Positions 837 through 58,812 of a stretch of 64,000 bases of DNA are shown piece after piece. The notes under the pieces are model-generated. The model searched no databases, was not told the origin of the DNA, and was given only the letters and a program-made list of their open reading frames with translations. The translations under genes and the position numbers were made by a program. The first letter of the stretch is position 1, and the number at the start of each line of letters is the position of its first letter. Origin of the DNA: Octopus vulgaris (taxonomy: Eukaryota); the NCBI GenBank assembly GCA_951406725.2, contig OX597816.1, positions 42,842,001 through 42,906,000 on the forward strand, written 5' to 3'.

Positions 837-1026
837 TATATATATATATAGATAAGAAAGTTGGTTTGTGAAAGCACGTGGGTGAATATATAAAAAATAG
901 TAAAGAGTGAAAAAACGACAGAAGGCTTAAATGTTAGAAAATATATATATTTGCGTCAATATGTCTGAAGAATATTAGAAAATTTTTTAAACAAATTTTT
1001 TTTCCTTTATAATGACATAATTTTTA

Positions 1027-1065
1027 AAGAAAGACCGGTTTCGCATTTAGCTTTTCAAATTTCTT
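1027..1065 (-). ncRNA. minimal type-I hammerhead ribozyme, U3-A8 core variant, in the PLE 3' region
   Basis: Reads AAGAAA-U-UUGAAAA-GC UAAAU GC-GAAA-CCGG-UC-UUUCUU. Stem I 6 bp with one extra U, stem II 2 bp, palindromic stem III, GUC site. Confidence 0.7.
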
Positions 1066-1196
1066 GTGACGTTATGTTTATGTTTAATAGAGTTATGCTT
1101 GTGTTTAAGCTCCGGAGAGTTCTAAATAAGGGAAGGTAGTGGGTGATTTCTTCCGGTGTAAGGGAGATAATCGCTTAAAATTTTTTTTCCTTTCCC

Positions 1197-3607
<2,411 letters not shown>

Positions 3608-13390: not shown

Positions 13391-13542
13391 GCGGTGTATG
13401 TATTTTACGCTGCGCAGTTGCTGAAGGGGATGATTCGTGATGTCCGGTTAAGCAGGAGGAGAGCCGCAGCAGGCATAGAAACTACAGGCTCGAACCTAAG
13501 TGAATAACCTAATGCATGGGTAGTACTGACATTTTCCATGAC

Positions 13543-14110
13543 CAACGGTTGAAAATTGTGGACGCCCAAACTGTGGAACCTGCCCCAACCTTCTTGAAGG
13601 CTCGGATTTCCTTTTCAAACAAGGACAGAGGTTCACAATTAAAACTAGTTTCACCAGTGCCTCTGAGAACCTAATTTATGTAATAACCTGCTCGGGTTGC
13701 GGACACCAGTACATTGGACAAACGAGTATGACCTTGAGAAAGAGAATCACTCTACATAAGGAGCAAATCCGTTAACGCAATACAGACAAATTCCTCTCAG
13801 TGAACATATAGAAAAATGTGCAGAAAACATCAAACCAAATTTCACAGTCTTCCCTTTCTACCAGTGCAAAGACGCAATCTCTCAACTAGAACGTTTAAAT
13901 AAAGAAACTTTTTTCATTGAAAAATACAAAACAAGTTTTAATATGCACGTATAACCAACTTTTACGTTTTTCCATATTTCAATTCACGATTACATCACTG
14001 TACATAAATCCACTACTAAACAAGGTTTTTAAAACCTGTTTCTGTTCTATACACATATATAATCCCCAGCCATTACCGAAAGCTGAACAGTTATCTCCCT
14101 TACCTACAAC
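13543..14110 (+). pseudogene. PLE GIY-YIG/3' end relic closely related to the 853-3428 element
   Basis: CGRPNCGTCPNLLEGSDFLFKQGQRF...LIYVITCSGC..YIGQT...IPLSEHIEKC...RLNKETFFIEKYK. One stop/frameshift. Shares the UTR motif ttatctcccttac. Confidence 0.9.
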
Positions 14111-14119
14111 AATAACAAT

Positions 14120-14213
14120 ATTAATCTGAGGTTTACTCCGTTTTCAGATTATTTGTATATATATATATATATATATACAAATAATCTGAAAACGGAGAAA
14201 ACCGCAGATTAAT
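14120..14213. repeat. ~94-bp palindrome centred on a (TA)n tract
   Basis: attaatctgaggtttactccgttttcagattatttg / caaataatctgaaaacggagaaaaccgcagattaat. Confidence 0.9.
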
Positions 14214-14281
14214 ACACACATCTTTTGGACTACATTTAATACACAGCATGACATAACACATAGGGGACATAACAAATCTTT

Positions 14282-38700: not shown

Positions 38701-39181
38701 AACAGTAATACCTGTCAGGATCCCGTCTAAAGGTTAAATATTTCCCCCAGAAGTAGAGAAAACTCCCGTTAGTTTTTGGCAAGGTAGCTCTTCCAGGAGA
38801 AAGGTCTCTGATATAAAACCATGCCTTTGTCAATTAAATTCAATGACATACGGATGTGTCGATATCATTTTATTTCTTGATCAATTCAGTATTTCATAAT
38901 ATCCTATTGCGGTGGATGCGTGCCGGCTTGTAAAATTATATCCACACACAGGCAAGAATAAATTAAATCAGAACTATCAGGCTGAATGTGAGATGACTAC
39001 CATCTGACAATATAAGGCAATCATCTCAAATGCATGTATGTATGTATGCATGTATGTATGTACGTATGTATGCATGGATATGTGTTTACTGCCACCCCTT
39101 TCTGTATGCACACATATATGTATGCATTTGCGTGTGCGCGGCTCTTTCTGTGTGTGCATGTGTAGGAGGGTATATATATAT

Positions 39182-39739
39182 TTACCGGTTTAGTAAATGT
39201 TTTTATCTTCATTTCACTTAATTTATCAAGCTTTTGTATTCCTAGCACATATTTCGCCTTAATGTACTGATATATGAAAAATATATGGCTTGTGTTAGTA
39301 ATACCAGCGATTATAATTATTTTTATTTTATCGCAATTTGATTTGTTTACATATTTCTCGATAAATTATGAGCGCCAGGCGATATACCAGAATTCCCTAG
39401 TTTTGTCGGGACGTTCGGAGTCTGCGCAGTGATATGATTAGTTAGGGAGAGTAAAACATTAGAAGTACATGCTTCTAGTGAGTTAGGATCCCAGAAAAAC
39501 AGGGTCTCACTGAAGAGTTCTCCATGAGCAAATAAATTATCTTTATTGCTGAAAAGAAAGAAACTGCAGTCTGAGAATTACCGGTTTAGTAAATGTTTTT
39601 ATCTTCATTTCACTTAATATATCAAGCTTCTGTATTCCTAGCACATATTTCGCCTTAATGTACTGATATATGAAAAATATATGGCTTGTGTTAGTAATAC
39701 CAGCGATTATAATTATTTTTATTTTATCGCAATTTGATT

Positions 39740-39744
<5 letters not shown>
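39182..39744 (+). mobile_element. retrozyme-like non-coding retroelement: 1.4 tandem units of a 396-bp monomer containing one HHR
   Basis: 167-bp direct repeats 39182-39348 and 39578-39744 (2 mismatches seen), (TA)n on both flanks, no ORF. Confidence 0.85.
39505..39576 (+). ncRNA. canonical type-I hammerhead ribozyme
   Basis: UCUCA-CUGAAGA-gUUC...GCAAAUAAA/UUUAUUGC...GAAa-GAAAC-UGCA-GUC-UGAGA. Predicted cleavage after 39571. Confidence 0.88.
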
Positions 39745-39788
<44 letters not shown>

Positions 39789-40666
39789 CATACATACATA
39801 GAGAGATAGGTAGTGTTGAGCAACATCGTTGAATAATTGTCATCAAACAGCCGGTTCACTTCAGAGGGTATCTGAAAATGTAGGTTTAGTTATCTTATAT
39901 AGTAACACTATTTAATCAACAACACAATGTTTCAGTTATACGCATTACAATTTATATTAAAGCGAATTTATACTTACCACTGGGCTTACATTCATGAGAA
40001 ATATATCTGTGCATAATGTTTATAACATTCAACGATTTGCTGTCGTAAACAAAACATTTTTTCTGCAATGTTTTAGCATTTCTTGTCTGAATGCAATCAA
40101 ATGCATCTTACGATCCTAATTTCCCCCTGTAAATATATTGTTTGTGACTTGTTCTTACAACCAGTATTCATTAATCAAATAGCATAAAAAATATCATTTG
40201 CCATTCATTAGTTGTTTATACGAAACAAAAATGGAAAAAATGATACACTCTATACAAAATCTAATCACAAATAAGTATAGCATTTAAGCAGAGGGTCAAG
40301 GTCTTAGGAGAGTGATAAACTGAGGGGGTTGATCGGAGATATTTGAGAACTGAGGATCATAAACTGTCGATAGTAATTATAAAGAGACGTGGAGTTTGTA
40401 TTTTACATGTGTTGATTGGAAGGATTCGCTACCATTTAAAATCTTTAGTAATTTTACAAAGATGCATAAATGCAGTTATGGACGGCTGTATATGTATATC
40501 AATATATATGCATATATAACATCAGAATATTTATATTTATTTAACGTTCAAAGATTGATACAATAAATTGTGGAAGTTCTAGAGATAATTAATGAAAACG
40601 CTATATATACATATGTGTGTGTGTGTGTTAGTGTGTGTCTGTGTTTGTGTGTGTTAGTGTGTGTGT

Positions 40667-57197: not shown

Positions 57198-58812
57198 TAT
57201 AGCTGTTTGGTAAGAAGTTTACCTGCCAACAACACATTTCCGGGTTCAGTCCCACTGTGCATTATTAGGGAAAATAACTTCTAAAACTCGGACTGACGGA
57301 TTCCGAGTGAGTGGATTAGGCAGATGAAACGTGAAATAAGGTTGCCATATATACAGTGCGGGGAAATAAATATTCCTACATGTCAAAATTATTTATCTAT
57401 TTAATTTCTAATTAACATAAATGGGATATACCAATACTATATTTGCATACAGATGCATAAACTAAGAATATGCAAAAGAAACTAATAAATTATAGTAACT
57501 TAAGGAATTTATATACAATCATAAATATTTAGGGGTGAAAAAAGTATTCGTAAAGAATAAATTTATGAACATAAAGTAGTATTGTAATAATGGCGAAAAG
57601 TAAAGAACTCACAAATACAGTGAAACATTTAATTGCTGAACAGAGGAAAGCAGGTAAAAGTTACAGGAAAATATCAAAGACCCTTTGTATTCCATTTTCT
57701 ACCATATCTTCATTTATTCAAAGATATAAAAAAATCGGGAACTGTTAAAAACAGGATAAGATCCAGTGCACCATGCAATATGTCCCCTAGAAAAAATGAA
57801 GTGAACAATCGAAAAAAAAACGTAATAATCACCAGAAGGGAGTTGCAAGAAGATTTGTTAGTTTCAGGGGCTAGTGTTACAATATGAACAATCAGCAATG
57901 AACTTCATAGGAATGAACTGAAGTCACCCTTTCCTAGAAAAACTCTGCTATTGACTAAAAGGCATAGAGATGCCCGTTTAAAATTTGTTTATGAAGATAA
58001 AGATAAACCTGATACATTCTGGAAAAATGTTCTATGGACAGACGAGTCGAAAATTGAATTGTTTGAAAGAAATTCGTGTAGCCATGTTTGGAGGAAAGAT
58101 GGTACTGCCTATTCGCCGAAAAACACAATTCCTACCATAAAGTTTGGTGGTGGCAATATCATGGTGTGGGGGTGTTTCTCTGCAAATGGTACTAGCAATT
58201 TACATGTGATAGATGGTAGAATGAATGCAGATATGTACCAAAATATTTTGAACAATAATTTATGGGACTCTGTAGAAAAGCTCCAGCTTTGTGAAGTGTG
58301 GGTTTTACAACAGGATAACTGTTGTGGAACTGAATAATGGTTATGCTACGCAGTATTAAATCAGAATTATCAGTTATTTATGTTCTATACGAATACTTTT
58401 TTCACCGCTAAATATTTATAATTGTATATAAATTCCTTAGTAGCTATAATTTATTAGTTTCTTTTGGATATTCTTAGTTTATGCATGTATATGCAAATAT
58501 AGTATTGGTATATTCCTTTTATGTTCATTAGAAATCAGATAAATAAAGAATTTTGACATGTACGAATATTTATTTCCTCCCACTGTATGTATGCATGAGG
58601 GGGGTGTCTGTGGGGAGGCTGTGGGGGGCTGTGAGCCCGTGAGTGCGTGTGTCTTCCTGTCTATGTTAGAGAGTTTACGTCCCCGTAACTAGAGATTGGA
58701 CAAAAGAGATTAATAAAATAAGTACCAAGCATAAAATGTGCTGTAGCCGATTCGTTCAAGGAAAATCTGTGGTGCTCTAACATGGCTGTAACTTATGAAG
58801 ATAAAAGATAAA
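57198..58812 (+). mobile_element. old SINE family 1 copy interrupted by the Tc1 element
   Basis: Head at 57198-57350 (tggtaagaagttt..cgggttcagtcccactg); tail at ~58670-58812 (tttacgtccccgtaact..ggtgctctaacatggc..ataaaagataaaag). Confidence 0.7.
57354..58585 (+). mobile_element. Tc1-family DNA transposon with ~200-bp IR/DR-type TIRs; defective transposase
   Basis: TA|CAGTG...CACTG|TA ends; TIRs 57354-57552 and 58388-58585. ATG at 57590 (MAKSKEL), then [23 protein letters not shown]. Frameshifts, and the third catalytic residue region is deleted. Confidence 0.93.

Follow-up and report, generated by a model that had tools for sequence, protein, structure and literature searches.

The non-LTR retrozymes described in metazoans (PMC7229834) share several properties with the octopus element reported here, designated family A: a non-coding unit of approximately 400 bp with a GC content of 34%, one type I hammerhead ribozyme with a short palindromic helix III, occurrence in partial and multiple tandems, and the presence of Penelope-like elements (PLEs) in the same genome. 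In the account of Li, Clavereau and Pollet (2026; 10.64898/2026.07.22.740005), retrozymes are derived from PLEs, are non-autonomous and occur as monomers, dimers and multimers; family A shows a like range of copies and may be a derivative of this kind. Neptune-clade PLEs and non-autonomous Chlamys such as MRC1 (PMC8557442) resemble it in microsatellite-biased insertion, partial tandem structure, 5′ truncation and a hammerhead near the 3′ end. For Poseidon PAc, a PLE of the anole, AT-rich DNA was nicked and reverse transcription started inside the RNA in vitro (Frangieh et al. 2024, PMC11167929). R2 with its 5′ HDV-like ribozyme (PMC3774820) is a further parallel, with ribozyme cleavage setting the 5′ junction of the inserted copy; unlike family A, R2 is autonomous, rDNA-specific and not tandem, and it carries another ribozyme.

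How animal retrozymes enter DNA (enzyme, primer, circular or linear template) and the role of cleavage in Penelope-type mobilisation are open questions in the cited papers. Octopus and cephalopods have no mention in the main text of PMC7229834, where insertion-end mapping was likewise not found; in the accessible text of Li et al. (10.64898/2026.07.22.740005), neither a mollusc among the named groups nor end mapping was found. The literature covered contained no paper on the present family or on retrozyme end mapping; an unnamed repeat entry for it may exist in Repbase, Dfam or supplements, which were outside this scope. Family A adds a non-LTR retrozyme family, with a testable in vivo footprint, to an element class that is already known.

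In this study, a window of 64,000 nt of Octopus vulgaris DNA (contig OX597816.1, positions 42,842,001 to 42,906,000, forward strand) was analysed, and the genome (2.8 Gb in 227 contigs) was searched for relatives of an element within it.

Structure of the window copy and its hammerhead

The element at 39182–39744 of the window is 563 bp long and consists of a 396-bp unit preceded by 167 bp of the same unit. Unit positions run from 1 (39349) to 396; the predicted cut lies behind position 223, and the base that comes next is called +1. The features are as follows.

39171–39181, no strand: left part of the (TA)n target, read from the sequence
39182–39348, + strand: 5′ partial unit, covering +7 to +173 as counted from the predicted cut; it forms the upstream copy of the 167-nt repeat
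39349–39354, + strand: TA-like hexamer lying just 3′ of the fixed end in tandem or circular RNA; judging from the sequence and 3′ junction counts, the putative pairing site at which nicked (TA)n would prime reverse transcription
39349–39744, + strand: complete 396-bp non-coding unit, closing at the fixed 3′ end of the family (89 of 107 elements end at the same base)
39505–39576, + strand: type I hammerhead with helix I at 39505–39509/39572–39576, CUGAAGA at 39510–39516, helix II at 39517–39559, GAAA at 39560–39563 and the predicted cut after C39571
39639–39694, + strand, with a second occurrence at 39243–39298: predicted hairpin whose 3′ foot is a ribozyme-independent truncation hot spot common to families A and B
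39745–39800, no strand: right part of the (TA)n target, read from the sequence, with no discernible target-site duplication

The initial annotation had described 1.4 tandem copies of a non-coding 396-bp monomer with 167-bp terminal repeats that differ at two positions, inserted in (TA)n. Both the TA tracts and the repeats were confirmed, the latter lying at 39182–39348 and 39578–39744 (167 nt each, offset 396 nt) with mismatches at 39223 and 39234. The unit, with a GC content of 0.338, is indeed non-coding, since stops occur 6–15 times per turn in every one of the six frames and the longest Met-to-stop stretch is 52 aa. The 167-nt repeats are the overlap of a 1.42-unit partial tandem, not LTR-like ends; no true LTR exists in family A, where the length of the terminal repeat tracks the 5′ truncation point of each copy. 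The 5′ end at 39182 corresponds to unit base 39578, the first 6 nt past the predicted cut being absent, and the proposed distance of 6 nt between insertion end and cut was thus reproduced. The copy had also been called young. It is young, yet its six private substitutions in 563 nt (1.07%) make it the second most diverged among 38 scored elements of subfamily A1, for which the median is 0.2%. It has one ribozyme only, where the "active" criterion of Li et al. calls for two. As to host gene context, a Pfam scan of 108 of the 313 complex reading frames returned two transposon fragments and nothing else. A Tc1/Tc3-like transposase fragment lies at 57888–58334 (+) of the window (PF01498, E = 4e-6, under the curated cut-off).

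In the predicted hammerhead, helix I is UCUCA/UGAGA (5 bp), helix II is long, and helix III has 2 bp with a palindromic UGCA loop, GAAAC-UGCA-GUC occupying 39560–39571. CUGANGA was found once on the + strand of the element (39510) and not on the − strand. The motif had been annotated as one canonical hammerhead; a single hammerhead-like motif with a CUGANGA/GAAA core was retained, and the word canonical was dropped, helix II having no G10.1–C11.1 pair at its base. The position of this pair is G·A in the window copy, a private change, and A·A in 62 of 64 family-A elements, and an alternative helix II register of family A (an extra A, then U–A) likewise lacks it. An A·A or G·A at the helix II base would be expected to slow cleavage, the U·U of the axolotl ribozyme being a comparable case. 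PLE hammerheads conserve G10.1–C11.1 (PMC4209133), and no measured cleavage rate for A·A or G·A at this place was found in the literature covered. In axolotl HHR_Amex2, whose helix II base has a mismatch as that of family A does, cleavage is weak for the monomer and good for the dimer (PMC7229834); for family A, cleavage is a prediction. By this analogy, the family A hammerhead would be an attenuated yet working ribozyme.

An Rfam scan gave no hammerhead match at E ≤ 1, and folding of single sequences also missed the motif (a 91-nt fold was no better than shuffles, z 0.27; a second fold had z −1.42), so that the reality of the hammerhead rests on comparison across the family, in which CUGANGA, GAAA, NUH and helices I and III of a type I hammerhead are present. 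N7 alone commonly varies in the family A core (A in 41 elements, U in 11, C in 11 and G in 1), and a C replaces U4 in 2 elements. Copies were found in part by means of the 3′ half of the ribozyme core, whose conservation is to that extent built in; the CUGANGA half played no such role. A lineage-level U4-to-C change (CCGANGA) was seen in both families A and B, in L069, L095 and several B copies.

A looser pattern search detected the sister families B (399–404 bp, 83% identical) and C. Helix II reads GCCU/AGGC in family B and GUCU/AGAC in family C, which has GUA at the cut; G10.1–C11.1 is present in B and most of C, and some C copies have A·C at the helix II base. Among 14 hand-picked haplotypes, one pair of helix I switches between C–G, U·G and U–A, and 96% of cells pair compared with 29–51% in slid controls, a score inflated by kinship, with both sides changing in one pair only and the proximal helix II unscorable in one register. 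Taken together, this covariation, the use of all four bases at N7 and the GUA at the cut in one sister family suggest that the ribozyme is under selection. In public runs with four organism labels, 38–65% of the words of the element were present, and eight runs showed pieces 85–100% alike; contigs covering the helix II base read A wherever listed, like family A.

Copies, 3′ ends and target

That the monomer would be multicopy was borne out. Exact patterns yielded 157 ribozyme 17-mers and 245 3′-end 21-mers, with 0 for reversed controls, and a DNA search with the unit yielded at least 97 matches, mostly of 95–100% identity, with 39 of 550 candidate places scored. A family-A element was present in 107 of 108 merged loci; these 107 mapped elements, taken from among the matches listed, are near complete for 3′-anchored copies on contigs C1–C11 and biased to long copies elsewhere. 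Five complex elements were left out of the end-exposure, haplotype, A1 and lineage counts, and four of them were restored for the single-caller comparison of A with B and C. One locus (L034, 1 of 30 from the exact ribozyme pattern) was a chance match, and L210–L212, from the looser pattern, were unrelated. For families B and C, 90 of 103 3′-anchored copies were called, 10 listed and 3 unlisted copies not being used.

Copies of family A ranged from 25 bp to 10,959 bp (27.7 units), and at least 14 had two or more full units. The 3′ end was at unit position 396 in 89 of the 107 elements and at 392–396 in 104; a TA tract adjoined the 3′ side in 103 and the 5′ side in 86. Five copies retained the TA-like hexamer at the 3′ junction (the rare ACATAT junction, 5/107). 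Families B and C (e.g., L180, L188, L221 and L260) have the same 3′ end and target. Two-armed structures with both strands were observed in none of the 107 family-A loci and in 2 of 121 B/C loci. Short duplications (6–15 nt) of element 5′ sequence, interleaved with TA repeats, were seen at the 5′ junctions of L010, L019, L046, L089 and L092, which suggests repeated priming attempts.

A short low-GC non-coding unit (150–450 bp) with a type I hammerhead per unit and co-resident PLEs fits the non-LTR retrozyme class, and we are confident that the 396-bp units form a real, young family of it. Compared with the metazoan retrozymes of PMC7229834, family A consists mostly of dispersed short copies (approximately 150–250 units) with one fixed 3′ end, a strict (TA)n target and no visible target-site duplication, and some of its lineages show a pile-up of 5′ ends at the cut site. 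Unlike Neptune-clade PLEs (PMC8557442), it has no ORF, one 3′ end instead of two separated by a tail, and no inverted arm in 107 of 107 loci.

The shared 3′ end in (TA)n combined with 5′ ends that vary across copies was the starting observation for a mechanism, and internal priming of the PLE type is very probable. An endonuclease would nick (TA)n, and the nicked strand would anneal either to a (UA)n read-through tail or to the TA-like hexamer within the RNA, so that copying would be primed at a fixed point 173 nt after the cut. Such a 3′ pattern equals target-primed reverse transcription at a fixed internal site, as for the anole PLE (PMC11167929), with the addition that the site resembles the target; the start site of Poseidon PAc is not homologous to its target.

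Position of 5′ ends relative to the predicted cut

A check of the 5′-end distribution, suggested in the initial annotation, showed that the ends are not random and pile up just past the predicted cut. Beyond the first unit, 17 of 53 ends were at +1 to +29, compared with 7.6% exposure (p = 2e-7; as extreme a result arose in 0 of 300 scan permutations), in a 29-nt zone that was chosen after seeing the data and with copies from one source not being independent. The C1–C11 set had 18 of 80 ends in this zone. When one caller was used for ends within −58 to +87, family A had 25 of 44 at +1 to +29 (20% expected) and B/C had 7 of 37 (Fisher p = 0.0006); the total for B/C was 7 of 85 ends with 8.6% expected, i.e. 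no pile-up. The edge in A1 was sharp, with 10 ends at +1 to +12 and 1 at −12 to −1, and the pile-up in A2 was weak (7/18, p = 0.049). Three copies started exactly at +1, two of them being 173-nt copies. Stops in the zone were commoner on the second pass than on the first, which is not expected from plain linear monomers.

Many 5′ ends sit on TA or AT dinucleotides, as expected from microhomology joining of the cDNA end to the left (TA)n. TA/AT density was rejected as the sole cause of the pile-up, because family A has 6 such sites at +1 to +29 and 6 at +30 to +58, yet 25 versus 2–3 ends; scarcity at −29 to −1 (2 sites) may lower the count there. One copy starting 6 nt past the cut proves nothing, and the coincidence across the family is far beyond chance. 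The pile-up after the cut likely records ribozyme cutting in the living animal, as read from genomic sequence. We consider it rather probable that ribozyme cleavage caused the 5′ end of the copy at 39182–39744.

In an alternative explanation, 5′ ends are inherited from the boundary of one or a few source copies, or are fixed by transcription that begins near +1, and a source of 1.4 units flanked by TA tracts is copied whole like a SINE. The distribution among lineages agrees with it. A1 elements that reached the zone on a second or later pass stopped there in 13 of 18 cases in the base and 21C/150G lineages, which include the window copy, whereas the A1-116C lineage, which holds the longest arrays, had stops at +1 to +29 in 0 of 7 elements (45 passes); this split was made post hoc. 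Neither this absence nor that in the sister families was anticipated in the initial annotation. Three copies of the 21C lineage start at +8, and two of these carry the rare ACATAT junction; PLEs are also described as having promoters in the pLTR (PMC8557442). Against inheritance, the ends in the zone are spread over approximately 15 positions in three lineages, and copies with ends at +8, +12 and +26 carry variant 360A in each of their two repeats, which would need copying of a single unit that a source with one ribozyme would not supply. A founder boundary or start site would moreover fall in the 29-nt zone by chance in about 7% of cases. This explanation is unlikely. Because the 116C lineage has mostly the same ribozyme as the pile-up lineages, ribozyme sequence alone does not explain the pile-up, and the source locus or folding outside the ribozyme must matter.

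Slightly less likely still is that all copies derive from circles or uncut multimers and that, in some lineages, a structure lying immediately 3′ of the cut makes the reverse transcriptase stall, be it the folded ribozyme, an alternative helix or a ligation scar. Structure can stop this enzyme, since a second hot spot, at +117 to +145, is common to A and B and coincides with a hairpin predicted at about −15 to −17 kcal/mol. For circular A1 RNA, an A1-specific helix of +24 to +33 with −7 to −16 was predicted (p ~0.8), and its foot at +33 could explain ends at +22 to +29; seven other ends, at +6 to +9, lie at the foot of helix I. However, the A1 fold was computed on a unit of the 116C lineage, which has no pile-up, local folding energies at +10 to +30 are alike in A and B, and folding predictions gave no comparable A-specific hairpin at +1 to +20. 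Five ends at +1 or +3 are inside helix I, and the excess breaks off at the cut. Family B should fold its ribozyme at least equally well, yet has no pile-up. Cleavage at the ribozyme is retained as the preferred source of the cut-site ends. A point against it comes from Poseidon PAc, which did not require ribozyme cleavage in vitro and gave no reads terminating at the site (PMC11167929); the 5′ ends of family A differ in that they track the cut.

Penelope-like elements, templates and array growth

Three Neptune-like PLE families with a C-x4-C-x2-C linker before GIY-YIG were present, two of them with long open frames; approximately 31,000 PLE-like candidate places were obtained and about 60 were scored per protein search. 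Such a linker is characteristic of Neptune/Nematis and has been proposed as the cause of their microsatellite bias (PMC8557442). One family is represented in the window by a frame of 744 aa (1197–3431, −) with reverse transcriptase, linker and GIY-YIG, inserted in TA repeats and with many near-intact relatives. The 5′-truncated PLE in (TA)n that holds this frame spans 850–3431 (−). A minimal hammerhead-like motif with a U3–A8 core, a variant described before (PMC4209133), lies in its 3′ UTR at about 1028–1065, and this UTR has two alternative 3′ ends approximately 42 nt apart. The second family (L303–L332, e.g., G000:C8:9192606-9194864) is 56% identical to that of the window and has many copies, open frames of 758–876 aa and a conserved 3′ region of microsatellite-like sequence. 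Of the third, a broken 3′ fragment is at 13542–14215 of the window, with a short inverted piece beyond a TA tract; its relatives L334–L352 have a minimal hammerhead-like motif that reads as an A3–U8 core, and two 3′ ends. In the two PLE families with readable ends, these ends likewise lie in (TA)n and precede an internal ATAT motif.

Units A and B had no significant DNA match to the three PLE families, the third of which was represented by 13542–14165 of the window; the one weak match (E 6e-4) was in the flank, outside the PLE. In Xenopus, by comparison, homology of retrozymes to pLTRs was reported (10.64898/2026.07.22.740005). Since none of these three PLE families matches the unit in DNA, the argument for a Neptune-like partner comes from the shared target and end geometry.

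The unit could also be the pLTR or 3′ end of a coding PLE, and the copies its 5′-truncated descendants. In favour of this, PLEs are known for partial tandems, TA targeting, hammerheads and fixed 3′ ends, and Xenopus retrozymes derive from pLTRs (10.64898/2026.07.22.740005). Every copy beyond one unit, however, runs on into another unit and never into an ORF; a joint to a reverse transcriptase plus GIY-YIG ORF was seen in 0 of 107 family-A and 0 of 90 B/C elements, PLE fragments near a few copies were not contiguous with them, and arrays reach 9.6 and 27.7 units. With 0 of 107 mapped elements continuing 5′ into a coding PLE, a reading of the unit as merely a pLTR, raised in the initial annotation as a possible refutation, is already unlikely for the present copies and was given very little weight; an ancestral pLTR origin is possible.

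Units within one element agree with one another, 165 lineage variants being in all units and 14 discordant, and five private variants occur in every unit of their array. From this agreement it follows that each new variant goes through repeated copying of a single unit. The simplest way to achieve this is rolling-circle copying, as in the published model; template jumping or gene conversion could have the same effect. Discordance between repeats, used as a test for a linear dimer template, gave no recurrent pattern and had low power. Four of the eight public runs had single contigs of 426–428 nt (about one unit plus one word), of uncertain kind and expected from tandem DNA and circular RNA alike, and these were given no weight. 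Two 850-bp copies with two ribozymes carry the 21C/150G haplotype of several 544–562-bp copies and could be sources of either template, linear or circular.

The array of 27.7 units at G000:C5:112643581-112654540 has one variant in all units and nested subsets of others (16C in 11/27, 106G in 16/27, 205T in 20/28), and appears to have been seeded by one template and then expanded locally at the DNA level. Spread of the family as a satellite or minisatellite by slippage or unequal exchange, with a decayed ribozyme, for which these nested shared variants are the mark, is most improbable, being contradicted for dispersal by copies that are scattered among unrelated flanks, share a single target and a fixed 3′ end, differ at their 5′ ends and have ribozymes that vary at tolerated positions only; it holds only for the growth of large arrays.

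The preferred reading, which we regard as moderately probable, is that the copy at 39182–39744 is a young non-LTR retrozyme copy written into (TA)n by a Neptune-like PLE reverse transcriptase from a linear RNA with a ribozyme-cut 5′ end. Arrays with two or more ribozymes would be transcribed and cut, and fully cut monomers would be ligated into circles; copying round a circle would give homogeneous arrays of any length and phase. In the lineages with the observed pile-up, many transcripts would be cut at one ribozyme and not at the next. After 569 nt (or 173 nt) the enzyme would reach the cut 5′ end and run off, and 0–28 nt would be lost as the cDNA joins the left (TA)n end at a nearby TA or AT. 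The 563-nt window copy would be such a run-off product of a half-cut linear RNA. The initial annotation named two templates. For this copy the better fit is a terminally redundant linear RNA, since circles offer no end at the cut, and for the longer arrays it is circular RNA.

A more tentative proposal, which we put forward as somewhat short of probable, is that two template forms are recorded in one retrozyme clan, with circle-copied lineages having no preferred 5′ end and long arrays, and lineages copied from half-cut linear RNA having cut-site ends and a ceiling of about 570 nt. Family A offers a fixed priming site, a strict target and close lineages with and without the cut-site footprint, a ready comparison for cleavage and reverse transcription in vitro. 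If true, the two-template record would be genomic evidence of in vivo hammerhead cleavage in Penelope-driven mobilisation, and small changes (A·A at helix II, 116C outside the ribozyme) or the source locus would tune the balance of circle to linear RNA and hence insertion size.
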